Translations under genes and position numbers: made by a program
In this document: piece after piece, positions 2,015 through 55,740 of the stretch
How positions within the stretch are numbered: the first letter of the stretch is position 1
Layout of the letters: each line of letters begins with the position of its first letter
Assembly (NCBI GenBank): GCA_035627515.1
Contig: DASPLQ010000012.1
Span: 650,331-714,330, forward strand
Direction of reading: 5' to 3'
Origin: Vitreimonas sp.
GTDB lineage: Bacteria > Patescibacteriota > Microgenomatia > UBA1400 > PJMF01
Length of the DNA stretch: 64,000 nt
Notes under the pieces: generated by a model
Seen by the model: only the letters and a program-made list of their open reading frames with translations
Databases searched by the model: none
What the model was told of the DNA's origin: nothing

Positions 2015-2040
2015 AAGTTGCAGACTGTGCGCAATTTGGG

Positions 2041-2127: not shown

Positions 2128-2154
2128 AGTGATACGTATGATACCTGAGTCACC

Positions 2155-4924: not shown

Positions 4925-4934
4925 AAATCAAAAG

Positions 4935-6636: not shown

Positions 6637-6685
6637 CTCAAGTCTTATCTTTCCCGACATCATTAAACCTTGTACAATCGCGCTC

Positions 6686-12800: not shown

Positions 12801-12854
12801 GTGCTGTTTTTTATTCCCTCAAGGTTGGTAAAAAGTAATGTGTTAAGGATCTTT

Positions 12855-13889: not shown

Positions 13890-13979
13890 GGAAGCGTCGC
13901 ATAGTGGCCCAGTGCAACAGGTTGCTAACCTGTACCACAGAAATGTGGTTCGTGGGTTCGAATCCCACCGCTTCCGCCA
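13890..13979 (+). tRNA. tRNA-Ser (anticodon GCT), type II
   Basis: GGAAGCG acceptor stem, anticodon arm ACAGG-TTGCTAA-CCTGT, long variable arm, T-loop GGTTCGAATCC, discriminator G and encoded CCA. Confidence 0.85.
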
Positions 13980-20710: not shown

Positions 20711-20820
20711 TACTCAATAATAGAGGATGAAGATGGCTCTAAACAATATGTAAACTCGATATGTTCGCCTTTTCTTTGTCTCGTCGTAAGTGTAAGAAAT
20801 CTGTAAGATGTGTACCAGGC

Positions 20821-24834: not shown

Positions 24835-24836
24835 TT

Positions 24837-27800
24837 ATGAAGTTACCCATTTTAAAATATTGGCGTAGTCAGTACCGAACATTTTTTTTTGCGTTGTTGA
24901 CTATCTTAAGCTTAGCGATTCCAGCGTGGTACCGATTACACTCACCTAGTGATGCCCGGGCCGGTTGGTTTAATGATCAATGGCAATATCGCAAACGCAT
25001 TCCGCTAACTAATAGTGGTGGCAGTACCGTCACTGACCACCAGGTTCAATTAACTATCGATACCGCCGCGCTTGTTACCTCCGGCAAACTCCAAAGCAAC
25101 TGTGTTGACCTCCGTCTTAACGCTCAAAACACTGATTTTTTGCCATATTGGATTGAACCAGGAACGTGCAATACGACAACCACTAAAGTCTGGGTTCGTG
25201 TCCCTGAAATTCCTACCACTGGTGCAAATATTTGGCTGTACTACGGTAATCCCTCAGCGCTGGATGAATCGAGTGCGGAGCGGGTGTTTCATGCCATTCT
25301 CAAAAACCAGGCGGCAGCCTGGAATATGGATGACAATGTTTCTGGTAATGGTCAAACAATTACCGATGTTAGCGGCAATAGTCGAACAGGTACTATTGTC
25401 GGTTCAGTGAACTGTACAGGTACTGGTCAATTTGATAAAGCCTGTTCACTAACTAGTGGTGGGTATATTGATACTTTTGATACCGGACTTTCAAATCAAT
25501 TAAGTATTTCAGTATGGATTAAGCCCACTTCTGTAGCAACTGCACAAGCAATTATGGGTGAACGTTCGGGAACTAACAGCTGGGCGCTCTATGTTCGACC
25601 CACTGGGGAACTAGGATTCACTTTAAGTGGTTTATCTGATCACATTACAACCGGAGCAGGAGTGACAGCGGGAGTTTGGCAACACGTATTGGTAGTAGTT
25701 AATGGCACTAGTTTAAAAATGTATCGCAATGGAACCCTAGTCAGCGATGTCACTATGGGAGCAACAGTTGCCGACTCTAACCTAACTATGAAAATTGGTG
25801 CTGCAGGTGGTGCTACTAGTCCATATACAGGTGAGATAGATAACCTGCGTTTGTATTCACGGGCTTTCAATGCTGAAGAAATACAACAATTATTAGGCCC
25901 AACCGCAAATTCTCGATATGGATATATGACAAATAACTTGGTAGGCAATGAATTGGTTACAGGTTACAACACTAATGTTACGACTGGCTCACAACAGACT
26001 GAGGAAACAAGTCCACGGCCGATTGCAGTTTGGAATTTTGATGAGGGTAGTGGACAAACTATTAATGATGTCGTGGTGAAAAAAAATCAAGCCATGTTAG
26101 GTGCTAATAGCTCTTCGGCATCAGATGACCCTACCTGGCAAACTGAGGATATGTGTATCAGTGGTAAGTGTTTACGGTTTGATGGTACCAATGATTATGT
26201 CCAAGTGAACAATAATATTAGTACTCAAATAGGCACTGCAGTCACATTTTCGGCTTGGATTAGAACTAATTCGAGTAACAATCCGATGTCGATTATGGGT
26301 AATTACAATTCCGCGGTAGCAGGAGGACCATGGTTTGAAGTGCTGGCAGGTAAAGCGGCTTTCCATAATGGTAGTTCCGGAACTTTAAGTAGTAATAAAT
26401 CAGTTAATGATGGTAAGTGGCATCATGTGGTGGCTACAGTTGGGCCCTCCGATGCAAAGATCTATGTCGATGGCAGTTTAGATAACTCATCAACTTCTTT
26501 TTCACTTTTGAAAACATCCACAACTGCCTATGCCATTGGTGCGGTCTATGCATCTAGTGCTCCCAGTTCATTCTTTAATGGCTTCATTGATGAGCCCAAA
26601 ATTTATCCCTATGTGCGGACAGCTGCCGAAGTCAGGCAAGATTACATTCGGGGTTTAACGAGTGCAGGTGCTAATGCCGCGTTGGGTGTGCCGGAAACCA
26701 GCCATTTAAATAATGGCTTAGCAGCCTACTGGAAAATGGATGAGAGTAGCTGGAATGGGACCAGCTCGGAAGTGATTGATTCGAGTGGTAATAATAATCA
26801 CGGAACTGCGGGCTGCAATGGCGGGTGTGTGGGTTCACCTCCTAGTACTAGTACCGGTAAATTTGGCAATGCGGGTTATTTCACGGTGACAGGCAGTAAC
26901 TATCAGAGGGTTAGTGTGCCTTCTTCTAGCACTTTGCAGATCACTTCAGCAATAACGCTCTGTACTTGGGTTAATGAAGTAGGTACCAACTTTAATGGAT
27001 ATGTGCTTGATGCTAACACGTATCGTTTACAAATGAACTCTGGCGGTAGTATCGATATGCGGGTGACTACTGGCGGTGTCTCAACCGCCTCGCCAAATAG
27101 TGGTACTCTACCCACTAACACTTGGGTGCATATCTGTGGGACCTATGATGGTAGTAAGGTTAGTTTATATAGAGATGGCAGCTTAGTGGGATCAACAGCC
27201 AAAACAGGTACTATTGATACTATCAGCAGTCCAGTTATTAATAATGCTACTGGTGCAACTCGCAACTTAAAATTAGATGAATTCCGTATTTATAACCGAG
27301 CTCTTTCGCCCGCCGAAGTCCAAGATCTCTACGCGTGGACCGCTGGACCGGTGGGGCACTGGAAGTTCGATGAGGGGGAGGGTACGACTGCGAATGATGC
27401 CAGTGGCAATGGCTTAACGGGAACAATTACTTCTGGGACCCAGTGGAGTGAAGGAAGATTTGGCAGCGCACTCAATTTTGATGGGACTCAGCTAGTTCTT
27501 ATCGGTAATTCTGCTCCAGTTCAATTAGGAACGGGTACAGTAGAAGCCTGGATCAAAACCACTAATGCCGGTAGTTCTTTCCGTGGTATCGTAGTTAAGC
27601 AAAACGCCTATGGCATGTTTTTAAATGATAATGTGTTCGGAAGCTATGATTGGGGAGGGACTGGTTTTAATAGTAGTGGCTTAAGTCTTAATGATGGTCA
27701 ATGGCATCATGTCAGTATGACTTTTGATGGCAGTAATAGTACCACCAACTTATATCTTGATGGTACTTTGGTTGACACAGGCAATAACACTGTCTCAGGT

Positions 27801-29981: not shown

Positions 29982-29989
29982 GCTTTCCT

Positions 29990-32071
29990 TTGCAGTACTT
30001 ACCTAATCTGTTACTATGGATACAGATGTCAACCGTGGATTCATTTACCCAGCGCGTCATGAACATGATTCTGCCAGCAATGGCGATCATAGTCCCGATA
30101 GTGTTTGTGCCGCTGAGCACAGATTTTTTTACCACCAGTAAAAAAATAGTGTTATTGGTGGTGGCTTCGGTAGCAATTTTGGCTTGGACATGGCGCGGAG
30201 TGCTACGTAAAAAATTTGATTTTTATATCAGTCCAGCCACGGCGCCACTCATTATTTTGTGCATTTTATATGGTGTTTCGACGGCGTTTAGAGCCCCCAA
30301 CTTTTGGCTAGCATTAACTGGTGAAACGACACTTTTTTTAACATTAAGTGTGATTTTTTTAACGGTAACGGCTCTTTTAAAAGAGCAGGCGGTGTTAGTC
30401 CGTACCTATCACTCGTTATTACTCTCTGCCTCTGTTGTGTCCCTGATTGTGATACTGCAATTTTTTAAAATTGGCCAGTTACTGACAGCAGTTCCTTGGT
30501 TAGAAACGCCGTTATTTAATCCCACTGGTGGTCCGCTCACCTTTTTATCTCTCAGTGTGCCTCTCATTGCAGCCAATGCTGCTTTCTTGTATCGTCACCA
30601 GCCACGGCCAAAGCCATTTTATTTTCTGACGACCTTATTATTGGTGGTTGCCTCGTTATTAACAGTGGCTTTATTAGTGATGGAAAAGTTGCAACTAATG
30701 CCGTTGACTGCAGCCTGGGTGATTGGAATCGGGGCCTTACAAAATCCTGGAGTGGCATTATTGGGAACAGGTCCCGGCACCTATGCCGATGTTTATACGC
30801 AGCTTAAACCGGCTTTTATGAACATGACGCCCACTTGGAATGTGGTTTTTTCTAGTTCAGTTAATTATTTCTTTCAACTACTCACTACGGTTGGGTTACC
30901 CGCAGTAGCTTTATATTTATATGCCTTAGGGAGCACTCTCGCAGCCGCCAGCCGCCAGCTCACGAAAAACCGATGGCTCAAAGTTTACACGGCTTTGCTA
31001 CTTAGTTGCGTGGGAATGCAACTCATTTTGCCTCCCAACTTAATGTTAATGTTGATAGTGTTCATCAGTTTGAGTTTAGTGACAATTGAGTTAAAAATAA
31101 CTCAGCTCTCTGCAACCCTTAATCCTTTGCAGAGTAGTGCGGCCCAGATGTTGGGAGCGCCGCGGCGCTTTTGGGAGCAACGATTTGGGGCACATGAACA
31201 AAAATTAAGCTTGTTGTTTTGGTTTATGGGTTTGGTGATTACTGGCGGAGTGCTTTTTTATAATTACGTCCTGGCCCGCGCCTATGCCAGTGAGATAGTT
31301 TTTTATCGCTCTTTGCAAGCCGCGGATCAAAACAATGGCACCGCCGTTTATAACCTTCAAGTCCAAGCCATTAACTTAAAACCATATGAGCCCCAGTATC
31401 ATTTGGCATATGCTCAAACGAATCTCGCGTTAGCTGAGTCATTGGCAGCAAAAAGTGAGGTTAATGATCAAGACAAAGCCACTATTACCCAATTAATTGA
31501 ACAAGCTATCCGAGAAGCTAAAACTGCGGTGCAGTTACAACCGACCAATAGTTTGGCGTGGCAAAACCTAGCGGCTATTTATCGGCAACTGATTGGTTTA
31601 GCTGATGGAGCAGATGAATGGACATTGACGGCTTATCAACAGGCTATAGCCTTAGATCCTAGTAATCCTCAGCTACGCCTAGATTTGGGTGGAGTTTTTT
31701 ATTCGGTAAAAAATTATGGTGAAGCTGTAGGCTACTTTACCCAAGCCGCTCAACTTAAACCCGACTGGGCTAATGCCTATTACAACTTAGCAATGGCGTA
31801 TCGCGATGGCGGAGAGCCGCAACTAGCAGTCCAAGCCATGCGTGTAGTAGCCGAACTCATTGATCCTACGAGTACCGAGTATCAACAAGTGCAAACAGAG
31901 CTCAAAGCTTTAGAAGCTGATTTGCCGACAGAAATAACCCCACCTCAGCCTTTACCAGTCAGTGATGACACAGAAGAGGAAGAAGTACTCACGAAGCCTT
32001 CACCATTGCCTTCACCTACTTTGAAAGAGGAAATCGAACTTCCGGCTGATGTAGCCCCAAATTCACCCTAA
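29990..32071 (+). CDS. O-antigen-ligase-like (Wzy_C) polytopic membrane protein with C-terminal TPR repeats
   Basis: At least 10 TM helices, with a periplasmic-loop GIGALQNPGVALLGTGPG. C-terminal TPR-like repeats (AYYNLAMAYRDGG, LAWQNLAAIYRQL). Confidence 0.6.
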   Translation: MQYLPNLLLWIQMSTVDSFTQRVMNMILPAMAIIVPIVFVPLSTDFFTTSKKIVLLVVASVAILAWTWRGVLRKKFDFYISPATAPLIILCILYGVSTAFRAPNFWLALTGETTLFLTLSVIFLTVTALLKEQAVLVRTYHSLLLSASVVSLIVILQFFKIGQLLTAVPWLETPLFNPTGGPLTFLSLSVPLIAANAAFLYRHQPRPKPFYFLTTLLLVVASLLTVALLVMEKLQLMPLTAAWVIGIGALQNPGVALLGTGPGTYADVYTQLKPAFMNMTPTWNVVFSSSVNYFFQLLTTVGLPAVALYLYALGSTLAAASRQLTKNRWLKVYTALLLSCVGMQLILPPNLMLMLIVFISLSLVTIELKITQLSATLNPLQSSAAQMLGAPRRFWEQRFGAHEQKLSLLFWFMGLVITGGVLFYNYVLARAYASEIVFYRSLQAADQNNGTAVYNLQVQAINLKPYEPQYHLAYAQTNLALAESLAAKSEVNDQDKATITQLIEQAIREAKTAVQLQPTNSLAWQNLAAIYRQLIGLADGADEWTLTAYQQAIALDPSNPQLRLDLGGVFYSVKNYGEAVGYFTQAAQLKPDWANAYYNLAMAYRDGGEPQLAVQAMRVVAELIDPTSTEYQQVQTELKALEADLPTEITPPQPLPVSDDTEEEEVLTKPSPLPSPTLKEEIELPADVAPNSP

Positions 32072-32131
32072 AAATTCGCCTTTTCTTTGTCTCGCGGTGA
32101 GTGTAAGAACTCTGTAAGATGTGTACCAGGC

Positions 32132-35100
32132 ATGGAAAAAGATCCACGCAGGAGTATTACGTTTCTCGGTTTAAGCCGCAGCAAGCGCTTGTTTGCTGTC
32201 GGTTTAATTGTGATGGCAGGAATAGCATGGTGGTCGATCCGACCAAACAGGCTTCTCGAGCCCAGTGGTGATCAATTGGCAGTCGCACAGGGAAAAAGCG
32301 TAGGCTCTGGTCGAGTTCTAGGTACTGACACCGAAGAGATTACCCCAGCCACGTTTCAAGTCCAAGTGGCGACAGTGTTCTCAGATGTGGTGAGGATCGC
32401 AGAGTTGAGTGTGGCAGAAGGTTCAGTGTTTGCAGGGCTGGCTGAGTTTCAAGATGAAGTCATCATGCGCGCCAATGCTGAAGTAAGAGGTGATTTAACA
32501 GTTGGTGGGCGGTTAATTTTGAATGATGATGCGTTTGGCAATGACATTGATATCGATATCGAACAAGGCACCATCACTGCTGGCACCGTCACCGCCGATA
32601 ACTTAGTCTACTCAGTTAAAGCTGGCTCGGGCATTTCGGTCAGTGGCACACAGGACGTGACTATTTCCGCCACTGATTTAGGTTCTTCGCAAAAGATTTT
32701 TAAAAACGTTAAAGTCAATAGTGACACCATTACAGCAGCCAATAATGAAGACACCCTCACCCTCAAAAATGGTTCTGGTGTTAACTTATCTCGATCCGGC
32801 AATGAAATTACTTTTGCCAGCGATAACATTAGTGGCTGGGTGCGCTCAGGTAGTTATGTGGCCTTGGTAGATGCTACCACTTCCGTAGGTATTGGGACCG
32901 CTACCCCCACCAATAAACTGGAAATCAATTCCGGTACCACTCACACTTCTGGTCTCACCTTTAGTCAAATGACGTCTGCCTCTACGGTCGGGGTTGGGGG
33001 CGGTAAAGTATTGTCAGTCGATTCTGGTGGCCGAGTGATTTTAGTGCAGGACCAAACGGGTGACACTCCCGATGCAGAATCAGTTTTGCCTTCTACAACT
33101 ACTGGTGGCACCTTATATTTCAATGGCCTGAACTGGGTAGGCAGCACCAATCTCTATCACAATGGTGGTCAAGTGGGTATTTCCACTACACCTGCTGCCA
33201 ACTCACGTTTTCATGTTCTAACGAATGCCGTGGATAAGGTTGGGGCAGTGATTCAGCGCGTTGTTTCTCAGACGGCAAATTTGTTAGAGTTTCGTGATGA
33301 AAATGGTAATGCGCTGAGTTATTTTGATGAAGAGGGCGTTTATCATGGTGAAGCAGAGTTAACGGGCTCGATTACTGGCTCTATTAACCCTGGTTTAGTC
33401 CAAGGACAAGTAGCTTATCAAGGAGCTTCTGCTTTGGCTGGTAGCAACTCATTATTTTGGGATGCTGGTAACTCGCGCTTAGGGATTGGAACTAATGGGC
33501 CTTCTTCTCAGTTACACCTCAACTCAAGTACAGACGGGACAACTACTGGCATTACTTTAGCTAGCCAATACAACACGCTCAAGCTGTATGGCCGAGGTAA
33601 CTCACCAGCTAGCTCAGTTATCGAATCGAGCGGGAGCTTTCCAGGAATCACTTTTAGAACTGGTTCTAGTCCTGCTGATCGTATGTACTTAGATCTGGTT
33701 GGTAAATTAGCACTAGGGCACACTTCACCAGTGGGCTTATTTGATGTCAGTGGCAAGGTCACCGGTAAAGCTCTAAATATTCTTAACGAAACCGGTAACC
33801 AAGATATTTTCACCGCCTCGGCTTCAGGAACTTCACGGTTCACGATTAAGAATGATGGGAGTGTGGGTGTAGGCACAGTGAGTCCAAGTCAGGCCCTACA
33901 TGTAGTTGGTAATTTAGCCGTCGAAGGTGTGGAAACTGGGACAGGAGGCATAGCTGAAAATAGTGGACGCATTAGAGTTGGGAATCGAACTAATGGAGGT
34001 GTGACCACGAAATACTTAGAAATGTGGAGTAACTGGGATACCCCTGTTATTCAAAGTGTTGGATATGGGCAGCCCTTATCTATCACTTCATCAACTGGTC
34101 GAATAAGCATGAATCCTATTAGCTCAGGGGGTACGGCCACTAATTCGAACAATATGATTTTTTTGAGAGTGGGTCATGGGGCAGGGAGTACGAGTAACGT
34201 CAGTCCGGCAATAGCTGGTTCAGGAGGGCTTGGTGTCTGGGCCAGTGATATTAACTCTAGTTTACTGATTATTGATACTTCAACAGCTGGGCATAATCGC
34301 CCTCTGATTGAAGCCAGCGAGGCAACGGTATCTCGTCTCTATTTGCATCAGGATGGTCGGTTAGGTCTCAATAACAGTTCACCAACTGGCACCTTACACG
34401 TTGTGACTGGTTCAACAGCTGGTAAAGCATTGACAATTTTTAATGAAACCGGTGATCAGAATATTTTGACTGCTTCAGCCTCCGGTACCACGCGGATGGT
34501 TTTAACTAATAATGGGCTGTTAGGAGTGGGAACAACTTCTCCGACTTCCAGAGTCCACGTTCAAGGGGATTTAGCCGTGACCGATGGATCTGGTAATCCA
34601 GGTATACTGAGAATTGGTACCAATGAAAAAGGCCTCCTGTATTTGACTGGTAGTACCTTAGCTCTTCAAAGTAATAATTATCCTATTACTATTCAATCAA
34701 TCGGAGGTGCTTTTGGTGGATATATTCGTTTCAATCTAGGTGGAACTGAAGCCATGAGATTAACAAGCGCCGGGAATTTTGGCATTGGAACTACCGCTGC
34801 AACTTCGCCACTACATGTTAACGCTGGGTATGGCTCAAATGCCTTGGCTGCTTTCAATCAACTCAATGGTGGTGACATTCTGACAGCTAGCGCCAGTGGT
34901 ACTACCCGGATGGTGTTAAGTAATGCTGGGCGGTTGGGATTAAACACTCTTACTCCAGGCGCCTTAGGTGATTTTGCCGCTCCTACGAGTACGGTTGGTT
35001 TGATTGTTAGAGCTACTGCTTCCGGCGGACAGAATGCTCAAGAGTGGTACAACAATGGTAATTCTTTAACAGCGGCTGTTAACAATCAAGGTAGCTTTTA

Positions 35101-36394
35101 TACTGGCAGTTGTGCAGCAGTAGGAACTTCAAGTCTATGTGGCTCGCAATTGGCAGTGGTATCAGGTAGTCCAACTCGACCTGGTATTAGTGTGAGCGGT
35201 GCTTCAGGCCAATCCGCAGCACTTTTAAGCTTAACCGGAGCTGGCACCATTGCCGCAGGTACTAGTACCTACATGAACCTGGATCTTTCTGGTTTAGTGC
35301 TTACAACCAACAATCCTACTATTAATGGTTTTAATATTAGTAATATTCCTACTGGCAGCGGCGTAGAAACCGCGATTAAAGTGGGTACCGGTTGGGATGT
35401 AGCGGCAACTTTTGCGTCAGGCAACATTGGTTTGGGCACCAGTACGTTTGGAACGTCGGCTGATAAAGTGCTGGCCATTGCCGGCTCTACTGCGCCCAGC
35501 TCAGCGATCACTGATGGCATTCAACTCTTTGCTGTTGATCAAAGTGGCAGCCACGAGTTGAGAGTTATGGACGAAGCTGGAAATATCACTACGCTTTCAC
35601 CTCACAATTTCAGTTTAATTCCTGAAGGCCGTAGTGAGGATCTAGCTTGGAGTTTTTACTCAGAGCGTAATGGCTTAGCGATTAATGCTGATATGACCAA
35701 AGCCTTGCGGTTGGTAGAAAAACTGAGTGGTGAGCAATTAATTTACTTAAAAGATCTAGACACTAATCAGGACGTCACCCCGACATTTACTCAGGAGTTG
35801 CCTAGCGCTCAAACGCTTTTAGCTGAAGGAGAAATTCCGGCCGTAGCTCGTTGGAGTTATCAATTATGGAGCTTCATTGGTGAAGTGGTATTTGAAAAAC
35901 CAGCACGCTTTTTAGCCTCAGTAGTATTTGAGAATGACGTCAAAGTGGAAGGTTTCATTGAGCAGAGTCCAGCCGCAGCAGGTTGGGCAGAAATAAAGGC
36001 CGGTGACGGTGAAGTGAAAGTCACGTATGCCCAAGCTTACCCCGCACAGCCTGTACTGACTGTGACTCCCACGAAGAGTGGCGTAAAGTATCAACTGGTA
36101 GATGAAACCACCACTGGCTTTACAATTAAACTCGAAGCACCCGCCGCTCAGCTCGAACGCTTTGCATGGCAGGCACAATTTATTACCAGTCCCCAAACCA
36201 CCACTAGTAATGGGGGAAGTAGCCCATCACCTTCACCCACAGCTAGTTCCAGTCCCAGCCCCAGCCCGAGCTCAGCCCCAGTCATTGCCTCGCCATCACC
36301 GACCCCACTTGTCTCACCTGAGCCGAGTCCTAGCTCCCAGCCGGATGCAACTCCAGAGCCGACAGCCAGTGATTCAGCGGGGCTGAGTGAATAA
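32132..36394 (+). CDS. giant membrane-anchored surface repeat protein, tail-fibre-like (paralog 2)
   Basis: 5' leader and first roughly 470 codons nearly identical to the gene at 20821; the rest is divergent but has the same VG(I/V)GT...KAL(N/T)I(L/F)NETGxQxI(F/L)TASASGT repeat family. PS-rich C-terminus. Start placed at ATG 32132. Confidence 0.7.
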   Translation: MEKDPRRSITFLGLSRSKRLFAVGLIVMAGIAWWSIRPNRLLEPSGDQLAVAQGKSVGSGRVLGTDTEEITPATFQVQVATVFSDVVRIAELSVAEGSVFAGLAEFQDEVIMRANAEVRGDLTVGGRLILNDDAFGNDIDIDIEQGTITAGTVTADNLVYSVKAGSGISVSGTQDVTISATDLGSSQKIFKNVKVNSDTITAANNEDTLTLKNGSGVNLSRSGNEITFASDNISGWVRSGSYVALVDATTSVGIGTATPTNKLEINSGTTHTSGLTFSQMTSASTVGVGGGKVLSVDSGGRVILVQDQTGDTPDAESVLPSTTTGGTLYFNGLNWVGSTNLYHNGGQVGISTTPAANSRFHVLTNAVDKVGAVIQRVVSQTANLLEFRDENGNALSYFDEEGVYHGEAELTGSITGSINPGLVQGQVAYQGASALAGSNSLFWDAGNSRLGIGTNGPSSQLHLNSSTDGTTTGITLASQYNTLKLYGRGNSPASSVIESSGSFPGITFRTGSSPADRMYLDLVGKLALGHTSPVGLFDVSGKVTGKALNILNETGNQDIFTASASGTSRFTIKNDGSVGVGTVSPSQALHVVGNLAVEGVETGTGGIAENSGRIRVGNRTNGGVTTKYLEMWSNWDTPVIQSVGYGQPLSITSSTGRISMNPISSGGTATNSNNMIFLRVGHGAGSTSNVSPAIAGSGGLGVWASDINSSLLIIDTSTAGHNRPLIEASEATVSRLYLHQDGRLGLNNSSPTGTLHVVTGSTAGKALTIFNETGDQNILTASASGTTRMVLTNNGLLGVGTTSPTSRVHVQGDLAVTDGSGNPGILRIGTNEKGLLYLTGSTLALQSNNYPITIQSIGGAFGGYIRFNLGGTEAMRLTSAGNFGIGTTAATSPLHVNAGYGSNALAAFNQLNGGDILTASASGTTRMVLSNAGRLGLNTLTPGALGDFAAPTSTVGLIVRATASGGQNAQEWYNNGNSLTAAVNNQGSFYTGSCAAVGTSSLCGSQLAVVSGSPTRPGISVSGASGQSAALLSLTGAGTIAAGTSTYMNLDLSGLVLTTNNPTINGFNISNIPTGSGVETAIKVGTGWDVAATFASGNIGLGTSTFGTSADKVLAIAGSTAPSSAITDGIQLFAVDQSGSHELRVMDEAGNITTLSPHNFSLIPEGRSEDLAWSFYSERNGLAINADMTKALRLVEKLSGEQLIYLKDLDTNQDVTPTFTQELPSAQTLLAEGEIPAVARWSYQLWSFIGEVVFEKPARFLASVVFENDVKVEGFIEQSPAAAGWAEIKAGDGEVKVTYAQAYPAQPVLTVTPTKSGVKYQLVDETTTGFTIKLEAPAAQLERFAWQAQFITSPQTTTSNGGSSPSPSPTASSSPSPSPSSAPVIASPSPTPLVSPEPSPSSQPDATPEPTASDSAGLSE

Positions 36395-46075: not shown

Positions 46076-46660
46076 ATGCCTTCAAGTAAATATCCTTGGT
46101 TAGCAGTAGGGTTATTATTAATTGGAATTATTTTGGCGGGAGTAATCATTATTGGTTTACTCAGATGGAGTTTTAGACGTTTAAGCTCAGGTACCAGCTC
46201 ACCTACTATTACTACCGCAGCTACGCCAATTCCTGAAGTAGTGGTCCAAACTCAGGATAAATTAATTGTGATTGAGGACCCGCTCCTTAATCATGAAGGT
46301 TTGCGAGTTGAAGAATTCACCACAGATCCTAATCAACATTTAGGCCAAGCAGTAACGCTGAAAGGACAAGTCAGTCAACGCATCAACCCCTGGGGTTTTG
46401 CCCTGCGGTCGGCGGGTGAGCCAGATGCAGAGGTGCTCATCGTGACAAATGGCGACATCACCCAAAAATCTAATCTGGAGCCAGCTGGTTTAGATGTGGC
46501 TCAAGCAGTAGTTGTCAAAGGAATTGCCAAACTACTCACTAAAGAAGGGCAAACTGAACAATTTGGCTTTGAAATCGATGATTTATCTACCTCTGTCTGG
46601 CAGGATCAGGTAGTAGTGGTAGCCGATAGCGTTACGGTAGTTGAAGCTTCTCCTCAGTAG
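46076..46660 (+). CDS. membrane-anchored hypothetical protein
   Basis: N-terminal TM (LAVGLLLIGIILAGVIIIGLL) followed by a soluble domain. No family recognised. Confidence 0.4.
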   Translation: MPSSKYPWLAVGLLLIGIILAGVIIIGLLRWSFRRLSSGTSSPTITTAATPIPEVVVQTQDKLIVIEDPLLNHEGLRVEEFTTDPNQHLGQAVTLKGQVSQRINPWGFALRSAGEPDAEVLIVTNGDITQKSNLEPAGLDVAQAVVVKGIAKLLTKEGQTEQFGFEIDDLSTSVWQDQVVVVADSVTVVEASPQ

Positions 46661-46712
46661 TTGGTACAATAGCGACTCTTTGTTAACAGCTTATTATTGC
46701 TGCTAACAATCA

Positions 46713-46795
46713 GGAGAGGTCGCATAGTGGCCTAGTGCAGCGGTTTACTAAACCGCCGTTCGCAAGAACCGGGGGTTCGAATCCCCCCCTCTCCG
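46713..46795 (+). tRNA. type-II (Ser-like) tRNA with apparent anticodon ACT
   Basis: GGAGAGG/CCTCTCC acceptor stem. D-arm identical to the tRNA-Ser(TGA) at 6554. Anticodon arm GCGGT-TTACTAA-ACCGC (U33 A34 C35 U36 A37). Long variable arm, GGTTCGAATCC T-loop and discriminator G. Confidence 0.6.
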
Positions 46796-46831
46796 CACAT
46801 ATACTTTTACATATGCAAACCGAATGAACTC

Positions 46832-47326
46832 TTATTCAGTTGTCATATCTGCAAAAGACTCTTTTTTAAAGTACATCTCAATAGCTGCTTTGTGTCCCGG
46901 TAGTATATCAAGAGTGTTTCCCTTAATATTTATCCACTCCCAGCCCTCACATTTTTCAGGTTCTTGTAGTTGTGGAATGTCAGTAACATCCTCTGATACA
47001 TAAATAAAATGAATAAAGTCACAGATACCTTGATTCTCACGAACAACTCCCACGTATTCCAGCATATCTAATTTAATGCCTGTTTCTTCATAAACTTCTC
47101 GAGCTACTGCCTGACCGATAGGTTCATTTAGCTCGATCCTTCCTCCAGGTAAACCATAATAACCAGCCTTATAACTGTTTTTCCTTTTACCGAGTAGGAT
47201 TTCACCTTTGGAGTTAACTAAGATTGCGCAGGCGCCAATGGGTTGAGGAGCGGGGTTAGTCTTTAATTTTGAGATTTTTTCCTCGTATTCACGAACAACT
47301 TTTTGATGTTGAAACCAATGTCCCAT
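46832..47326 (-). CDS. NUDIX hydrolase (MutT-like)
   Basis: Nudix box GLPGGRIELNEPIGQAVAREVYEETGI. Confidence 0.8.
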   Translation of the reverse strand: MGHWFQHQKVVREYEEKISKLKTNPAPQPIGACAILVNSKGEILLGKRKNSYKAGYYGLPGGRIELNEPIGQAVAREVYEETGIKLDMLEYVGVVRENQGICDFIHFIYVSEDVTDIPQLQEPEKCEGWEWINIKGNTLDILPGHKAAIEMYFKKESFADMTTE

Positions 47327-47510
47327 ATTTTCCTTATAACTTCTTCCGTGAGGTTATTTTAACTCATTATCAGTATTATGATGAGAAGGTTGAGCTTACT
47401 GATAGCTTAGGTATTGGCAAAATGGTAGTATAACCCAGTCAACACAACCTATAATCAAGGTTCGAATAGAGTCAAGTTTAGCCCGCCACGTTTTCCAAAA
47501 TTAACTAACT

Positions 47511-48416
47511 ATGATTGAACACCCACAACCTAGTTCTCCCCAAACCGAAAACATATTTAACAACCATGAGCGATTAGTGTGCCGGTATGATGAATTAGAA
47601 ACAGAAACGCGGACCTTACTTGAGGGAGTTACGTACCGACAACTTCCGGAATTTATTACGCTCGATAAAAGATTGAGTGGTTTTTTTTCTAGTATTCGAG
47701 CTGCGGTAGACCTGGATCGTGAGAAAAGAAAAATTAATCCACTCAAAGCCGAAATGATACGACGAGCACGGTTAGCTTTTAGCGAGGTAGATGAGGAGGA
47801 TTCACATCGGCATTTACAACACCTCAACGCCTTTGATGAAGAACCTGTGGAAGAGTTGGAGCACGGTCAAAGACTTTATTTAGATGAAGGTAAGGTTATA
47901 CAAGGACGGATCTATAGAGGTGATGGCAGTTTTGTAGCAGCACAAACCCAAGCCGATAACATTGAAGATGATAAAGCAATTGTAGATATTCATAACCATC
48001 CTCACACTTCACCTCCCAGCCGACAAGATATTGCCTCCATGGTAGCAGATGATAAACCAGAGTCTGATCGGTGCTTATACTTCATTGCTGCTCAGGAGTT
48101 GAATATTGTTGTTGTTATTTGTCAGGATTCCCAGAGATACCCGATTACTGAATTAAGAACTAAACTAAAACTGGGGCTTAAAGCTAAAGAGGAGTATTTC
48201 GAAGAGTTAGAAGTAGCTAATGACTTGATTCCTAAAGAAATTGAGAATAAAAAACAAGTTACATTTATTAAATGGTTTGCTGACATTATAAAGTTGTCGC
48301 ATGAGTATCAAATTGGGATTTATTTTTCCTTAGCAGAGGAGAAAAGCAATGTCCTTAAGAGAGCAGATGATGTCCAAGAAATAATTGAGTTATCTCACCG
48401 TTTATCAAAATACTAA
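47511..48416 (+). CDS. hypothetical protein with RadC/JAB-like metalloprotease motif
   Basis: IVDIHNHPHTSPPSRQDIASM matches the RadC-type JAB signature HNHPSGxxxPSxxD. The rest is acidic/helical. Low-GC. Confidence 0.45.
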   Translation: MIEHPQPSSPQTENIFNNHERLVCRYDELETETRTLLEGVTYRQLPEFITLDKRLSGFFSSIRAAVDLDREKRKINPLKAEMIRRARLAFSEVDEEDSHRHLQHLNAFDEEPVEELEHGQRLYLDEGKVIQGRIYRGDGSFVAAQTQADNIEDDKAIVDIHNHPHTSPPSRQDIASMVADDKPESDRCLYFIAAQELNIVVVICQDSQRYPITELRTKLKLGLKAKEEYFEELEVANDLIPKEIENKKQVTFIKWFADIIKLSHEYQIGIYFSLAEEKSNVLKRADDVQEIIELSHRLSKY

Positions 48417-48428
48417 TATCAACTATCT

Positions 48429-48995
48429 TTGCCAAATTTTATGATCAAAAAACTTTCCTCCACTACTGTATATCAAAACAAATGGCTGAGCGTTCGTGAA
48501 GATAAGGTAATGTTTGATAACAAGTTTGAAGGCATTTATTCTGTTCTGGATAAACCTGATTGCGTGATGATTATGCCCTATGATGGCGAGTTCTTTTATT
48601 TGGTGAGACAGTATCGTTATCCGATTGAAAAATACTTTCTTGAATTTCCGGCTGGCAGCCATGAAGAGAGTACCATCGAAAATGAAGTTCAGCTCGTCAA
48701 AGACGAATTGGAAGAAGAAACGGGTTGGGTGAGTGAGAAAATTACTAAGCTCGGTGTTCTCAATGAAGTGCCCGCTACAGTCAATCAGCGTTGTCATATG
48801 TTTTTGGCAGAAAACTTACGCCACGGTCAGCAAAAGTTGGAAGTCACTGAATCAGATTTAACTATCATAAAAATGACGCAATCAGAACTAGAAACTGCGA
48901 TAGCGAATGGTAAAGTGAGTGATGCTAAGACACTGGCTGGTTTTTTGATTTGGAAATTAAAAAAACAGCTTAATGATGCTGATATTAAATCATAG
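48429..48995 (+). CDS. NUDIX hydrolase, ADP-ribose pyrophosphatase-like
   Basis: FPAGSHEESTIENEVQLVKDELEEETG Nudix box, with a NudF-like N-terminal region. Confidence 0.8.
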   Translation: MPNFMIKKLSSTTVYQNKWLSVREDKVMFDNKFEGIYSVLDKPDCVMIMPYDGEFFYLVRQYRYPIEKYFLEFPAGSHEESTIENEVQLVKDELEEETGWVSEKITKLGVLNEVPATVNQRCHMFLAENLRHGQQKLEVTESDLTIIKMTQSELETAIANGKVSDAKTLAGFLIWKLKKQLNDADIKS

Positions 48996-49007
48996 TATAG
49001 TACTTTC

Positions 49008-49583
49008 ATGAACGAAATTGTGAGGGGTATAGAAGACAAAACTATTTATACTCCCAAAGATGCTCCAGATCTTAAAATTCATATTTATAATCAAAGATAT
49101 GCAATAAAGCTATCAATGTGGAAAAAATTGGTTATTCCTGAAGATAGATTGAAGGCTTTAATGGACGAGCGAGGTGAAATGTGGTTAGCAATAAATGCCA
49201 GAAAACATGGCGATATCACTGGAGGATTAACTGGACTTGGTATTGATGCTCAAGACCACTCAGCCACAAGATTTCAATTAAAAGTAGATAAAAACACAAA
49301 TGTATATGAAATGAATATTCCAGTAGGCTATTCATTTGCCAGTGAAAAAGCGGCCCAAATAATGTTAAAAATGATTCCACAACAAGTTCAGCGTCAGCCT
49401 GTTATCCTCAGTGGCAGTGGTTTTTACAAAGAAATAGGAAGTGATGTTTTAACTTATTGGGGATATTCCCTGCCAGACATAGATGACAATGATCCGAGGT
49501 TTATTGAAAAAGGAATAGATACACATGGAAATGAGTTTATAAGTATGAGGCTGAATTCATTTCCAAATGATTTGAAGATTTGA
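49008..49583 (+). CDS. hypothetical protein
   Basis: 191-aa ORF with no motif. Low-GC, same islet as the flanking Nudix genes. Confidence 0.4.
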   Translation: MNEIVRGIEDKTIYTPKDAPDLKIHIYNQRYAIKLSMWKKLVIPEDRLKALMDERGEMWLAINARKHGDITGGLTGLGIDAQDHSATRFQLKVDKNTNVYEMNIPVGYSFASEKAAQIMLKMIPQQVQRQPVILSGSGFYKEIGSDVLTYWGYSLPDIDDNDPRFIEKGIDTHGNEFISMRLNSFPNDLKI

Positions 49584-49612
49584 GTGGACGTACAAAAACT
49601 CACCGGCATTTC

Positions 49613-50476
49613 CTACTCAGGTAACACACCCACTGTCTGCAGGACATTTATGTGTTCGGGTGGCTGAGCGAGTAAGTACTCAATTTCTTCTCTACGGACT
49701 ACTAAGTTATTTTCATTAGCGATGGTTTGTGCTTGTACGAGGGCTTTTTTAGCTTCATCCAGCTGACCAGTTTGAGCTAATAGCTGAGCTTTACTCATTA
49801 AGCCAAACGTCAGCCAAATTTTGGACCCGTTATTTTTTTCAATTAACGCTAAGCCTTGGGTAATGAGAGGTTGAGCTTCAGTCATTTTTCCTTGTGCTAA
49901 GTAAGCTGCACCCAAATGTGTCATTTCATCCCCTTGAGCTGCCGGCGCAGTTTGAATTTTTTGAGAGTGTTGAAGAGCAGTGATCGCTGGTTCTACCTTT
50001 CCTGCATACAGTAAGGCATGAGCCCAGTTTCTTGCCAAACCAGGATCTTGATCATTAAACCAATTATTGGCTTTGAGTGTTTCATATACAGCCAGAGAAC
50101 TGTCACTATACGCTTGAGCTTGTGTAGGTTGTTTCTGACGACTGGCTCGGCCAGCTTGGAGCCGAAACAAAATTGAGAGGTTGTTGCCAGTTTCGATGGC
50201 CAAAGCTTGATCTTTAATAGTGACTGCGGAGTAAAATGCTGTTTTTAGTTTCGGTTCAGACTCTGTATAGTTGCCTGCTTCTCGCAGTTGGGCCCCTTCG
50301 GCCATGACAGCTTTGATTTGATCAGCAGTTTCCAAGGTTGGTAAGGGAGTTGGGCTAGGGGACGAAGATGGAGTTGGATAAAGTCTAGTGAGGTTTTGGC
50401 CGATAAAAAAGGATGAGGCTAGCACTCCAGCGATCAAAACGAGCACGATGCCAATTAGGAGGGAGTTCTTTTTCAT
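49613..50476 (-). CDS. secreted/membrane-anchored TPR-repeat protein
   Basis: N-terminal signal/anchor (MKKNSLLIGIVLVLIAGVLASS), short PSPTP linker, then repeated TPR-like helices (AYLAQGKMTEAQPLITQGLAL...). Confidence 0.55.
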   Translation of the reverse strand: MKKNSLLIGIVLVLIAGVLASSFFIGQNLTRLYPTPSSSPSPTPLPTLETADQIKAVMAEGAQLREAGNYTESEPKLKTAFYSAVTIKDQALAIETGNNLSILFRLQAGRASRQKQPTQAQAYSDSSLAVYETLKANNWFNDQDPGLARNWAHALLYAGKVEPAITALQHSQKIQTAPAAQGDEMTHLGAAYLAQGKMTEAQPLITQGLALIEKNNGSKIWLTFGLMSKAQLLAQTGQLDEAKKALVQAQTIANENNLVVRREEIEYLLAQPPEHINVLQTVGVLPE

Positions 50477-50513
50477 ACAGCGCATTCTAACATAGTCGGA
50501 CTATACTAAAGCC

Positions 50514-50804
50514 ATGATAGAAATAGCTGCTGCTTCTATATGGTGGGTATACATTGTGGAGTGCCAAGATGGCACATACTACACGGGTGTGGCCCGGGAT
50601 GTAACTACCCGCCTGGCCCGACATAACACCGGGCGTGGGGCTAAGTACACGCGTGGTCGTGGACCAGTGAAGTTAGTGTACAGCGAACCTCAGTCTGATC
50701 GGTCGACAGCGTTGAAAAGAGAAGCTGAGATAAAGAAATTGAGCCGGGGCGAAAAGCAAGTTTTGATTGATGATTTTAAAAAAGGTGCTCAGAAATTAAC
50801 CTAG
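50514..50804 (+). CDS. GIY-YIG nuclease-family protein (UPF0213-like)
   Basis: WWVYIVECQDGTYYTGVARDVTTRLARHNTG...EAEIKKLSRGEK is a typical small GIY-YIG domain protein. Confidence 0.75.
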   Translation: MIEIAAASIWWVYIVECQDGTYYTGVARDVTTRLARHNTGRGAKYTRGRGPVKLVYSEPQSDRSTALKREAEIKKLSRGEKQVLIDDFKKGAQKLT

Positions 50805-51789
50805 CCCCTTTTCCCACCTTAGCTACAAAGATTTGATCAATGTAGGCTTCTTTCATAAAGAAAGTTTTTATTTTTTCTACATTTTCTTTATTACAAATGA
50901 TGTGAACGTTTGGTCCGGCATCGATGGTAAAGTAACATTCGATATCAGCTGCTCTTAGTTCATAAACAGCTTTGATTATTTCCAAGGTGCTACTCTCCCA
51001 ATACCAAATAGGTGGATGTGAGGTCATAGCAACGAGGTGAAGTGATAAAGTCTCCTTTTCTATTTCACTTCCTAGTAATGTGAGGTTTCTTTCAGAAATT
51101 GCTTCACGAATTTTTTTTAATCGTGGTGATAGCTCAGCTAGCCGAGCAGAGAAATAAGGGCTTGTAGCGGTGGCTTCGTGCCCTTCAAGTGAGGAAACTT
51201 TTTTAGCATCTTGAGACACTACCAAAATAAGATCATATAATGCCCAGTGTGATTCGGGAGCTAATTGGGTAGCAAAAGATGTGGTGTTGCTGGTGCCTTT
51301 TTTCCATTCCACAAATCCATCTGGTATTGAGCGTGTGGCGGAACCAGACCCTCCTAATCGAGTTAAGATAGAGAGTTGTTTTTGTGAAGGTTTTAATTTT
51401 AGGGCTTGGCATATTGCCAGCGTCAAAGCCGCAAAGGCGGAGGCAGAAGAAGCGATCCCGGCATCAGCGGGAAAGTTATTAATGGATTTAACACATGCTG
51501 GCAAATTAATCTGAGCCATCTCTCTGAGGCGATTTAATTGATTAATGATTCTAGAGGCTTTTTTTCCTGTTAATTGTTGTTCTTGCTCATTAAAAAAGGT
51601 GACATAAATTTGATCTACTGTATATTTTTCTGAAAAATCAACAGTAGTGATGGTATGTATTCCCTCTAAATTCATCGAGATAGAAGAATTTTGTGGTAAG
51701 GTTAATTCTGTATTTTTTTTACCCCAATACTTTACAAAGGCAATATTGGCGGGAGCGAGCGCAGTGGCTTTCATTGTAGTACTTCCCAT
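50776..51789 (-). CDS. mvaD: diphosphomevalonate decarboxylase
   Basis: N-terminus APANIAFVKYWGKKNTELTLPQNSSISMNL plus a GHMP motif AGIASSASAFAA. Confidence 0.85.
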   Translation of the reverse strand: MGSTTMKATALAPANIAFVKYWGKKNTELTLPQNSSISMNLEGIHTITTVDFSEKYTVDQIYVTFFNEQEQQLTGKKASRIINQLNRLREMAQINLPACVKSINNFPADAGIASSASAFAALTLAICQALKLKPSQKQLSILTRLGGSGSATRSIPDGFVEWKKGTSNTTSFATQLAPESHWALYDLILVVSQDAKKVSSLEGHEATATSPYFSARLAELSPRLKKIREAISERNLTLLGSEIEKETLSLHLVAMTSHPPIWYWESSTLEIIKAVYELRAADIECYFTIDAGPNVHIICNKENVEKIKTFFMKEAYIDQIFVAKVGKGARLISEHLF

Positions 51790-52685
51790 TGATGGTTACT
51801 TGTTAAGTTAAGTAGTTTGTTTTTTTGTTGATGATATGCCAAGATAATACCTGAGCCACCTTTTATTCCCCCAGCCCCACAAACTTTGGCGTGTCCGCCA
51901 ATGCTTTCAATCAGATTAATCATTTCTTTGGCTTTAGAGCCTACCACTCCTAGTGTTTCAAGTTGTCTCTGATTGGTGGTTAATAAAAATGTAGGCGGTA
52001 CTCCTTTTTCAAGTTGCTCAATAATCTTGTTTGTAACTTTACTAATGTTAGCGCATATTTTTTTGAAATCAGGTTTTTTAAGTGATTTTTCAACCATCTC
52101 TTTGGTAGTTTCTTTAGCTGCACCCGAGTTAATTAACACATAATTATTTATGTTAAAAAATGGCGTTTTTTTATCAGTTATTTTTAATTCACCGCCGATG
52201 CTTTTAACTACTAAAGGCAGATTGTATGCAGTTGCTACAGCGTCGAGGCCGCTGGGTCTGCCATGAGCATAAGTTTCACATTTCTGAATCAAAGTTATTT
52301 TTTGTGATAATGATAAAACGCATCTATTTACTTGGGCACAGGCTTGAACAATAGCATGCGCTAAGGCTGCTGATGAGCCCAACCCACAGTTTTGTGGAAT
52401 AGTTGAATTAAGTTCTAATTTAAAGTGAGAATAATCACTTGAAAATTCTTCTTTACAAACATTGAGAATAAACTCAACGTGAGGTGAATAAACAGGTTTG
52501 TTTTTAATGTTAGTGACCAATCTGGCTTTAATGTGATTTTTTAAGGGAATTACTAGCGCTATTGTTCCCTGTAATATACTATATTCACCACTCACTATTA
52601 ACTTACCGTGCGCCGTTGCCCAAGGAGTTTTATTTATCACTTGTGTTGTCCTCATCTTCAAGATAAACAATTTCATACATATCAC
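51771..52685 (-). CDS. mvk: mevalonate kinase (GHMP kinase family)
   Basis: HGKLIVSGEYSILQG N-terminal motif and the GHMP ATP-binding loop PQNCGLGSSAALAHAI. Immediately upstream of mvaD, overlapping it. Start uncertain (M1, M4 or M11). Confidence 0.75.
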   Translation of the reverse strand: MICMKLFILKMRTTQVINKTPWATAHGKLIVSGEYSILQGTIALVIPLKNHIKARLVTNIKNKPVYSPHVEFILNVCKEEFSSDYSHFKLELNSTIPQNCGLGSSAALAHAIVQACAQVNRCVLSLSQKITLIQKCETYAHGRPSGLDAVATAYNLPLVVKSIGGELKITDKKTPFFNINNYVLINSGAAKETTKEMVEKSLKKPDFKKICANISKVTNKIIEQLEKGVPPTFLLTTNQRQLETLGVVGSKAKEMINLIESIGGHAKVCGAGGIKGGSGIILAYHQQKNKLLNLTSNHQWEVLQ

Positions 52686-55652: not shown

Positions 55653-55740
55653 GGAAGCGTCGCCTAGTGGTTTATGGCACATGCCTGGAAAGCATGACCC
55701 CGCAAGGGGCTCGTGGGTTCGAATCCCACCGCTTCCGCCA
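55653..55740 (+). tRNA. tRNA-Ser (anticodon GGA), type II
   Basis: GGAAGCG acceptor stem, anticodon arm CATGC-CTGGAAA-GCATG, long variable arm ACCCCGCAAGGGGCTC. T-arm and acceptor 3' strand identical to the tRNA at 13890. CCA is encoded. Confidence 0.85.

Follow-up and report, generated by a model that had tools for sequence, protein, structure and literature searches.

The tRNA-Ser(ACU) gene and its counterparts

We examined a 64,000-nucleotide stretch of the 1.41-Mb contig DASPLQ010000012.1 (assembly GCA_035627515.1, positions 650,331 to 714,330 of the forward strand), which is referred to below as the window. Two adjacent elements in it are the subject of this report: a gene for a serine tRNA with the anticodon ACU, tRNA-Ser(ACU), and a low-GC islet (46797-49600) that follows it and encodes two Nudix proteins, a JAB-like protein of 301 aa and a protein of 191 aa. 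ARAGORN identified six tRNA genes in the window, corresponding to five Ser isoacceptors and a tRNA-Arg(GCG), which are scattered across 54 kb. These genes, and the promoter-like matches upstream of tRNA-Ser(ACU), are as follows:

46713-46796, plus strand: tRNA-Ser(ACU) (ARAGORN and Rfam); type II, with a 14-nt variable arm and G73, CCA not encoded
46641-46710, plus strand: two sigma-70-like promoter matches 5' of tRNA-Ser(ACU) (consensus scan; TTGAAG-18-TACAAT and TTAACA-16-AACAAT)
13890-13979, plus strand: tRNA-Ser(GCU) (ARAGORN), the usual tandem partner of Ser(ACU) in relatives, here 33 kb away from it
6554-6637, plus strand: tRNA-Ser(UGA)
2037-2128, minus strand: another of the five Ser isoacceptors
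55653-55740, plus strand: the remaining Ser isoacceptor
4934-5008, minus strand: tRNA-Arg(GCG) (ARAGORN), the stand-in typical of candidate phyla radiation (CPR) bacteria for the inosine-dependent tRNA-Arg(ACG)

The original prediction, made from the sequence alone, described the gene at 46713-46796 as a type-II, Ser-type tRNA with an ACU anticodon. ARAGORN likewise calls it tRNA-Ser (act), and the Rfam tRNA model RF00005 matches it with 53.8 bits, against a gathering score of 29. In the covariance-model alignment a five-pair stem (GCGGU/ACCGC) encloses the seven-base loop UU-ACU-AA; the sequence folds as a cloverleaf (-38 kcal/mol, z = -3.8), and the 14 nt of its variable arm form a hairpin with a four-pair stem. 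Seryl-tRNA synthetase (SerRS) recognizes its substrates via the variable arm and features of the acceptor and does not read the anticodon, and the identity set of the E. coli enzyme includes the G73 discriminator and the acceptor pairs G2-C71 and A3-U70. The tRNA in the window displays the corresponding Ser identity features (a long variable arm, G73, and the pairs G1-C72, G2-C71 and A3-U70), and is predicted to be charged by SerRS independently of its anticodon. The number of sigma-70-like matches in the region around the gene is not above chance; the two located at 46641-46710 are possible promoters, as judged from the consensus scan.

The same prediction noted that an ACU anticodon is redundant with the Ser(GCU) gene at 13890, and both genes are indeed present in the window. 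The two tRNAs have in common a type-II cloverleaf with a long variable arm, G73, the three acceptor pairs listed above and the same codon box, and residues U36 and A37 of Ser(ACU) suit ANN-type codons. They are nonetheless separate paralogs: they are only 71% identical and differ in their acceptor and anticodon stems, and tRNA-Ser(ACU) is therefore not a recent copy of Ser(GCU). A fresh G34A mutation of the resident Ser(GCU) gene is ruled out by the same stem differences. The D-arm of tRNA-Ser(ACU), TCGCATAGTGGCCTAGTGCA, matches the D-arm of the Ser(UGA) gene at 6554 exactly and differs from the one in Ser(GCU) by a single base, and over its full length the gene is 79% identical to Ser(UGA).

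The label 'Vitreimonas sp.', which denotes an alphaproteobacterium, is probably wrong for this genome, and the source is probably a Microgenomates-type CPR bacterium; we read it so because of its gene content, its PS-rich surface proteins, its tRNA set and its nearest relatives. The closest relatives of its diphosphomevalonate decarboxylase (MVD), at about 50% identity or less, belong to Woese-, Roizman-, Levy-, Gottesman- and Daviesbacteria.

We scanned metagenome contigs of the Joint Genome Institute (JGI) with the pattern AGTGGCCTAGTGCANNNNNTTACTAA, which specifies the D-arm, any anticodon stem and the loop TTACTAA, and obtained at least 119 loci; as the pattern fixed both D-arm and loop, these counts say nothing on loop conservation, and the phylogenetic spread that they give is a lower bound. 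All numbers given below for relatives refer to the 119 matches listed. ARAGORN called tRNA-Ser(act) in at least 114 of these loci, with a 115th copy cut by a contig end, and the copies comprise 86 distinct sequences.

Within those 86 sequences the acceptor, anticodon and T stems are paired at 99.5%, 99.8% and 100% of positions, respectively. Eight stem positions show double changes that exchange AT with GC, or CG with TA: 5-7 of the acceptor, 2-3 of the anticodon stem, and 1, 2 and 4 of the T stem. The acceptor positions alternate, for instance, between A-T and G-C, the anticodon stem shows C-G/A-T and G-C/A-T exchanges, and position 2 of the T stem occurs with four kinds of pair. Because the stems have been kept paired via two-sided changes, we regard Ser(ACU) as a functional gene under selection. 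The compensatory changes exclude a pseudogene, an assembly error or a private mutation, and a sequencing error as the origin of the ACU anticodon is ruled out by its presence in at least 114 independent contigs. The identity features are retained as well: G73, G2-C71 and A3-U70 are each found in 85 of 86 sequences, G1-C72 is near-invariant, and the variable arm forms a hairpin in all 86.

The contigs that carry Ser(ACU) are up to 1.19 Mb long, and NCBI names for their proteins refer to Candidatus Pacebacteria, Gottesmanbacteria, Levyibacteriota and 'Patescibacteria group'; based on these names the tRNA spans several candidate phyla of the Microgenomates group. Ser(GCU) is positioned on the same strand, upstream of Ser(ACU), in 41 of the 51 loci that hold both (median gap 123 nt), and the median identity between the two is 69%. 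One such locus (L275, 511-3483) contains, on one strand and within 3 kb, Ser(GCU), Ser(ACU), a small GIY-YIG gene, Ser(UGA), Arg(GCG), Ser(CGA) and Ser(GGA). The window looks like a compact Ser/Arg tRNA cluster of this kind that has been pulled apart by insertions, including the 33 kb with giant surface-protein genes between GCU and ACU. From these comparisons of sequence, Microgenomates-type CPR bacteria possess in tRNA-Ser(ACU) a fifth Ser isoacceptor, which is conserved and has been vertically inherited. No description of it in CPR bacteria was found in the literature searched, the coverage of which was incomplete, such that an earlier description is possible.

The same anticodon is also found in phages. 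A scan of IMG/VR with a looser pattern (loop and T-arm with a long variable region) returned at least 120 loci (L077-L196), and among the 120 matches listed at least 116 are phage contigs with tRNA-Ser(ACU), mostly inside tRNA arrays, while Ser(GCU) appears once. Other anticodons starting with A in the same listed loci are Gly(ACC), three times, and Leu(AAG), once. A BLAST search did not confirm Ser(ACU) in cultured phages, the matches checked being tRNA-Ser(UGA), and the phage observation applies to IMG/VR contigs only.

The abundance of Ser(ACU) in phage contigs, together with the fact that in the window it abuts the islet, raises the question of whether the tRNA is itself foreign, either carried in by a phage or delivered together with the islet on one mobile element. 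Its identity to the best viral copy among the matches listed is 79%, the same as to the host Ser(UGA); since loop and T-arm were both prescribed by the search pattern, however, the figure for viral copies is biased upwards. The D-arm shared with the host Ser(UGA), and all but one base of it with Ser(GCU), points to a resident origin, as do the at least 114 cellular CPR contigs in which Ser(ACU) is found, usually in tandem with Ser(GCU); the CPR-type sequence, in turn, has 0 matches in viral contigs. We therefore consider a foreign origin scarcely credible. Given the lack of a CPR-type viral match and of any closer identity, the CPR tRNA is cellular and the phage ACU tRNAs represent a separate population. 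Viral Ser(ACU) genes (those of IMG/VR phage contigs and of the chlorovirus ATCV-1; PMC4810235) share the anticodon and the type-II Ser architecture, but the phage copies possess a D-arm of the TGGCAGAGTGGTYTAATGCA type, and in them ACU replaces GCU as the decoder of AGY codons, whereas the CPR copies coexist with GCU. The connection between odd tRNA and islet that was implied by the original prediction is thus not borne out, since the tRNA is vertically inherited and lineage-wide.

Decoding with adenosine at the wobble position

Among the Ser codons of the window, AGU is used most (476 AGT versus 213 AGC). The A34 residue of Ser(ACU) would form a Watson-Crick pair with the U of AGU, with Ser(GCU) covering AGC; Ser(ACU) would then be cognate to AGU only, in contrast to Ser(GCU), which reads both AGC and AGU via G:U wobble.

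The natural substrate of the deaminase TadA, tRNA-Arg(ACG), presents A34 in the loop context U33-A34-C35-G36. The corresponding residues of tRNA-Ser(ACU) are U33-A34-C35-U36, and the G36 of the TadA context is thus replaced. A previous analysis reported that tRNA-Arg(ACG) is apparently missing in CPR bacteria, with GCG in its place (Shulgina and Eddy, PMC8629427), and in the related tRNA loci listed we observed Arg(gcg) 17 times and Arg(acg) 0 times; this replacement would imply that wobble inosine is not used. Because CPR bacteria use Arg(GCG) and appear to be without the ACG/TadA system, and because the loop has U36 instead of G36, A34 of Ser(ACU) is probably unmodified, and would remain adenosine.

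tRNAs with an unmodified A34 are reported to be extremely rare (PMC11066159). A 2026 preprint survey of GtRNAdb that covered 4,047 bacteria, essentially without CPR, found anticodons starting with A to be nearly absent, and those in split codon boxes to be sporadic only, with the G-starting partner always also present (10.64898/2026.05.15.725136). Natural cases being scarce, that work engineered the full set of A-starting tRNAs in E. coli; among them, Ser-tRNA(ACU) improved growth, and its predicted mistranslation was low. The other known bacterial A34 tRNAs (Arg(ACG) with inosine at position 34 (I34), Thr(AGU) of Mycoplasma, Leu(AAG) and others in Leuconostocaceae) resemble the CPR tRNA in having a prokaryotic A at the wobble position, and those of Mollicutes also in belonging to a reduced-genome lineage that seemingly has no TadA/inosine system. 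They differ from it in that they serve four-fold boxes, whereas the CPR Ser(ACU) serves a split box and is conserved across several candidate phyla of one class.

A different view of the anticodon would be that A34 is modified, to inosine or otherwise, or that it superwobbles, so that AGA and AGG are partly read as Ser and the lineage exhibits ambiguous decoding or incipient recoding. Precedents exist: according to work cited in PMC11066159, Mycoplasma tRNA-Thr(AGU) with unmodified A34 decoded ACU, ACC and ACG in vitro, and for tRNA-Gly(ACC) of E. coli competition extended to GGA and GGG; in E. coli, moreover, the A34 of Phe-AAA, an engineered tRNA for a split box, became I34 (10.64898/2026.05.15.725136). 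In the window, however, AGA and AGG are in normal use (110 and 36 codons), and AGA codons align to conserved Arg/Lys positions in two alignments, at position 279 of MVD (R in 57 of 63 homologs) and at position 209 of the JAB family described below (R in 20 of 24). The apparent absence of the ACG/inosine system from CPR (PMC8629427), the U36 in place of the G36 of a TadA substrate, and the growth benefit and low predicted mistranslation of Ser-tRNA(ACU) in E. coli likewise speak against modification or superwobbling, which we judge to be highly improbable. An outright reassignment of AGA to Ser is ruled out by AGA at conserved Arg positions in MVD and the JAB family; as far as these alignments reach, the genetic code of the lineage is standard, and AGA is still Arg.

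The low-GC islet and its genes

The genes and features between tRNA-Ser(ACU) and the mevalonate genes further downstream are as follows:

46832-47326, minus strand: Nudix1, 164 aa, MutT/NUDX1-like (Pfam NUDIX 2.5e-21, 76.5 bits against a cut-off of 21.1); convergent with the tRNA; GC 0.386
47327-47510, no strand: divergent intergenic region between Nudix1 and the JAB-Nudix2-191-aa string (open reading frame (ORF) map and sequence)
47511-48416, plus strand: JAMM/MPN+ (JAB-superfamily) metallopeptidase-like protein, 301 aa (motif, family alignment, predicted model)
48429-48995, plus strand: Nudix2, 188 aa, NudF/NudE-type ADP-ribose (ADP-sugar) pyrophosphatase-like (NCBIfam NudE 5.6e-15 over residues 10-175)
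49008-49583, plus strand: 191-aa protein without a family match; GC 0.349, the lowest among the genes of the window
49613-50485, minus strand: TPR protein, 290 aa (Pfam TPR_12 2e-10); GC 0.449, host-like; between the islet and the GIY-YIG gene
50514-50804, plus strand: small GIY-YIG protein, 96 aa (Pfam GIY-YIG 2.8e-18); native companion of the Ser/Arg tRNA cluster, used as an anchor
50776-52685, minus strand: genes for MVD and a GHMP (mevalonate) kinase (MVK); GC 0.390 and 0.356

The islet starts 36 bp 3' of tRNA-Ser(ACU). The interval 46797-49600 has a GC content of 0.375, compared to a mean of 0.443 (sd 0.020) for all 2.8-kb windows, which is the minimum of the 64 kb, and it ranks first of 88 in the window by tetranucleotide distance; the description in the original prediction of some 2.8 kb that are AT-richer than their surroundings is therefore accurate. 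Its four genes have GC contents, in order, of 0.386, 0.391, 0.381 and 0.349, against a gene mean of 0.437 (sd 0.038), and AGA and AGG are enriched in it (17 of 844 codons, versus 146 in roughly 20,000 codons of the window). The contigs with the nearest homologs of the islet genes have GC contents of 0.35-0.41, similar to that of the islet.

The 301-aa protein consists of an N-terminal helical region (approximately residues 20-110), a JAB core that contains the motif H161-N-H163-P-H-T-S-P-P-S170-R-Q-D173, and a C-terminal helix/strand extension. An exact look-up of the gene gave no match and a word-indexed homolog search returned only the protein itself, while an exhaustive HMMER search of 1.84 billion representative proteins identified 26 relatives; a single-protein search of viral contigs found none. 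In a family alignment of 25 sequences, residues D149, H161, H163 and D173 are invariant, and E117, Y123, G132 and S170 are conserved in at least 90%. These residues correspond to the JAMM/MPN+ zinc site with its catalytic Glu (E117); the spacing, HxH-x6-S-xx-D, is one residue shorter than the canonical x7. Prok-JAB (PF14464) is the sole Pfam family matched, below threshold for the 301-aa protein (E 0.0054; 17 bits against a cut-off of 25) and at E <= 0.1 for six of the 25 members (best E 7e-5). The RadC model (PF04002) matched neither the 301-aa protein (at E <= 0.01) nor any of the 25 members (at E <= 0.1), which rules out membership in RadC.

Prediction with AlphaFold yielded a pLDDT of 89.4 and a pTM of 0.86 when the family alignment was supplied, and a pLDDT of 37.7 from the single sequence. 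In a Foldseek comparison of the model to the PDB, the first 19 matches were JAMM proteins (CSN5, BRCC36, Rpn11 and a bacterial ubiquitin-like protein (Ubl) deubiquitinase), at E values of 0.035 or higher and TM scores of about 0.2-0.24, with AMSH and CBASS Cap3 lower in the list. Matches in BFVD (best E 5e-6) included a 'deubiquitination hydrolase' and phage proteins named RadC, and when the family alignment was used as a profile against PDB sequences there were 0 matches. The assignment of a RadC/JAB metalloprotease signature to this protein was thus correct with respect to the JAB-type motif and incorrect with respect to RadC, and from the zinc-site motif, the Pfam result and structural matches that are consistent in kind though weak, we place the protein in a divergent new family within the JAB superfamily. 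It shares with RadC-like JAB proteins (PF04002) of prophages, integrative conjugative elements (ICEs) and plasmids the HNHP...S..D zinc-site motif, a small, single-domain JAB core and a location in mobile elements or at tRNAs, but is distinguished from them by the RadC result (0 of 25), the x6 rather than x7 spacing, and its additional N-terminal helical and C-terminal regions. With Prok-JAB (PF14464) and the JAMM deubiquitinase-like proteins (Rpn11, CSN5, AMSH, Cap3 and the bacterial Ubl deubiquitinase) it has in common the conserved Glu, the HxH...S..D arrangement and its top structural matches; its scores, however, stay under the Pfam threshold, the Foldseek matches have the high E values and low TM scores given above, and partner genes of the ubiquitin-like, E1/E2 or CD-NTase kinds are not found nearby.

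The genomic contexts of its relatives are informative about its likely origin. Two loci, L067 and L068, display the same order of genes: coupling protein (T4CP), JAB homolog, small ORF, large serine recombinase and tRNA-Glu. The recombinase gene abuts tRNA-Glu in L067 and overlaps it in L068 (282-6291), and L067 (1-12756) carries relaxase and type IV secretion system (T4SS) genes upstream; the products encoded in this locus are a VirB4/TraC-like protein, a T4SS pilin, the relaxase, the coupling protein and an M15 peptidase. Judged by gene content and order, these loci are putative ends of ICEs in low-GC metagenome contigs. In three more loci the JAB homolog starts, on the same strand, 70 bp after tRNA-Pro (L072), 80 bp after tRNA-Trp (L322) and 259 bp after tRNA-Thr (L075). 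By its position, the 301-aa protein is probably mobile-element cargo, and because the family appears as cargo at the edge of tRNA-targeting elements, a remnant of an insertion in the window fits. Its role may be to process a protein substrate while the element is being transferred or established, which has been proposed for RadC-like JAB cargo.

The remaining genes of the islet include a MutT-like Nudix gene on the minus strand and a Nudix gene resembling ADP-ribose pyrophosphatases, both as originally described. The nearest solved structures to Nudix1 are those of Nudix hydrolase 1 (NUDX1) and NUDT15 (1e-15) and of MutT types. Nudix2 matches NudF (1.1e-17) and ADP-ribose pyrophosphatases in the PDB over its full length, and scores below the Pfam NUDIX cut-off (16.7 against 21.1). 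The 191-aa protein has no match in Pfam, NCBIfam, PHROGs or PADLOC. Its sole homolog (54% identity) is encoded in a metagenome-assembled genome of Woesebacteria (L320), where its neighbours are an alpha/beta hydrolase, an APH-type kinase and CobW; there is no JAB gene among them, and a Nudix gene 2 kb away is unrelated to Nudix2. In L320 (2769-2951, minus strand), about 1 kb separates that homolog from a tandem pair of tRNA-Pro(CGG) and tRNA-Pro(GGG).

These four genes could in principle have been acquired as one unit, as a small NAD/ADP-ribose-centred defence or anti-defence module of the kind that the original prediction had proposed for the combination of Nudix and JAB. Their low GC is common to all four, the JAB, Nudix2 and 191-aa genes are arranged on one strand with 12-nt gaps in an operon-like manner (and may be co-transcribed in this genome), Nudix2 resembles ADP-ribose pyrophosphatases, and Nudix1 matches the PADLOC candidate PDC-S07 at 7e-12. 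That last match, however, corresponds to a generic Nudix domain, as do the Nudix matches in PHROGs, and the JAB protein has no meaningful match in PADLOC or PHROGs: the PADLOC search gave a chance-level Cas6b match for it (E 0.005) and none for Nudix2 or the 191-aa protein, and no defined defence system was matched. A conserved module should travel together, and it does not: relatives of Nudix1, Nudix2 and the 191-aa protein are all missing from the 10 loci with JAB homologs that were searched, no Nudix match to the ORFs of the window was found in a nine-locus set that includes the JAB loci L316, L319 and L322, and the only homolog of the 191-aa protein is in a context without JAB. We consider such a module to be very unlikely, and the two Nudix hydrolases and the 191-aa protein would instead be co-located passengers or housekeeping genes rather than a conserved system.

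We next consider how the islet came to be where it is. The most likely reading, plausible but unproven, is that it is an insertion remnant: 46797-49600 would be the decayed remainder of DNA from a lower-GC relative that was inserted into the tRNA cluster. Spacing to the GIY-YIG gene points in the same direction. GIY-YIG homologs are found within 250 bp of tRNA-Ser(ACU) in seven metagenome loci, and the gap between the two genes is 108-164 bp in L275, L265 and L313, compared with 3717 bp in the window. Among the 119 related loci listed, which are distant and vary in gene order around the tRNA, there were no relatives of islet genes save generic Nudix matches. The TPR gene at 49613-50485, which lies within that gap, may or may not be part of the insertion. 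Small GIY-YIG ORFs of about 80-96 aa occur between the tRNAs of the Ser/Arg cluster, on either side of Ser(ACU), in eight loci (L231, L249, L265, L275, L293, L302, L213 and L313); they could be endonuclease-like mobile genes, or else a companion that is conserved with the cluster.

Several observations weigh against an insertion. No integrase, recombinase or T4SS gene was found among the ORFs scanned (36-63 kb), and a search allowing up to three mismatches revealed no att-like direct repeat of the tRNA 3' end. The GIY-YIG gene is upstream of the tRNA in four other relatives, and the anchor is thus not fixed, while three short contexts of JAB homologs (L069, L316 and L319) have no tRNA nearby. 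The native MVD and MVK genes at 50776-52685 have an equally low GC. Finally, a sister genome close enough for comparison was not found (MVD identity reaches about 50% at best), and the insertion is not shown by direct presence and absence: an MVD-anchored scan of genome contigs found only distant relatives (about 50% identity or less) with no tRNA-Ser in their flanks.

The low-GC stretch might accordingly be native, that is, a fast-evolving accessory region that has become AT-rich from weak selection without any horizontal transfer. The AT-richness of the nearby core-type MVD and MVK genes and the missing integrase and att site are what such a history would leave, and CPR genomes contain many lineage-specific small genes. 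It agrees less well with the rank of the islet as the most deviant 2.8 kb in both GC and tetranucleotides, with the sparse and patchy distribution of the JAB family (26 representatives) and its presence in conjugative elements, with the low-GC contigs in which the nearest homologs of the islet genes reside, and with a tRNA-to-GIY-YIG spacing far above that of relatives. On balance we find a native origin unlikely, although it deserves to be kept in mind. The proposal of a horizontally acquired islet is therefore supported by composition, by the tRNA and conjugative contexts of the JAB family and by the gap between the tRNA and GIY-YIG genes, and is left without an integrase or att site. Like tRNA-adjacent islands and ICEs, the islet starts at a tRNA 3' end, deviates in composition, and carries cargo with homologs in elements that contain T4SS, relaxase and recombinase genes at tRNA-Glu; unlike them it lacks a recombinase, T4SS genes and an att direct repeat, and could be a remnant at most.

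Some other features of the window can be mentioned here. The mevalonate block at 50776-52685 may be foreign too; the best relatives of MVD and MVK include archaea (Altiarchaeales) as well as CPR bacteria. Four large genes (1357, 1714, 693 and 1435 aa) occupy 20761-36394 on the plus strand and probably encode giant secreted or surface proteins; one of the products has seven Laminin_G_3 repeats and a toxin receptor-binding-like domain, and another has an endosialidase-chaperone domain (Peptidase_S74). An apparently complete FMN riboswitch (82 bits) is located at 12633-12779 on the plus strand, 5' of a gene at 12801-13787.

A conserved A34 tRNA beside a separate islet

Taking the two elements together, we read the locus, with a probability of roughly 0.7, as a working and conserved CPR tRNA-Ser(ACU) that stands beside a separate, decayed islet inserted into the tRNA cluster. 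The islet matters less of the two: its contribution is a small JAMM-like family, so far uncharacterised, whose members mark insertions next to tRNAs and conjugative elements on metagenome contigs of low GC. For annotators, the practical consequence is that a tRNA-Ser(ACU) gene is not to be flagged as a pseudogene or as a sign of recoding.

A broader proposal, which we put forward tentatively and at slightly less than even odds, is that CPR bacteria of the Microgenomates class and, separately, many phages have fixed and selectively maintain a split-box tRNA-Ser(ACU) with an unmodified A34. Were this to hold, the bacterial ribosome would impose no hard constraint against A34, whose avoidance would depend instead on the TadA/inosine system; a lineage that relies on Arg(GCG) without TadA could tolerate, or benefit from, an A34 tRNA that is cognate to its commonest Ser codon. 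More speculatively, the ACU copy might serve as a reserve decoder, spared by anticodon nucleases that target tRNA-Ser(GCU), which would also explain why phage tRNA arrays contain ACU instead of GCU.

The near-absence of A-starting anticodons from bacteria and archaea is an open question, for which the CPR tRNA-Ser(ACU) represents a natural test case. It allows one to ask whether A34 is indeed unmodified in these cells, whether the presence of the tRNA tracks the loss of TadA, and whether it tracks the usage of AGU.

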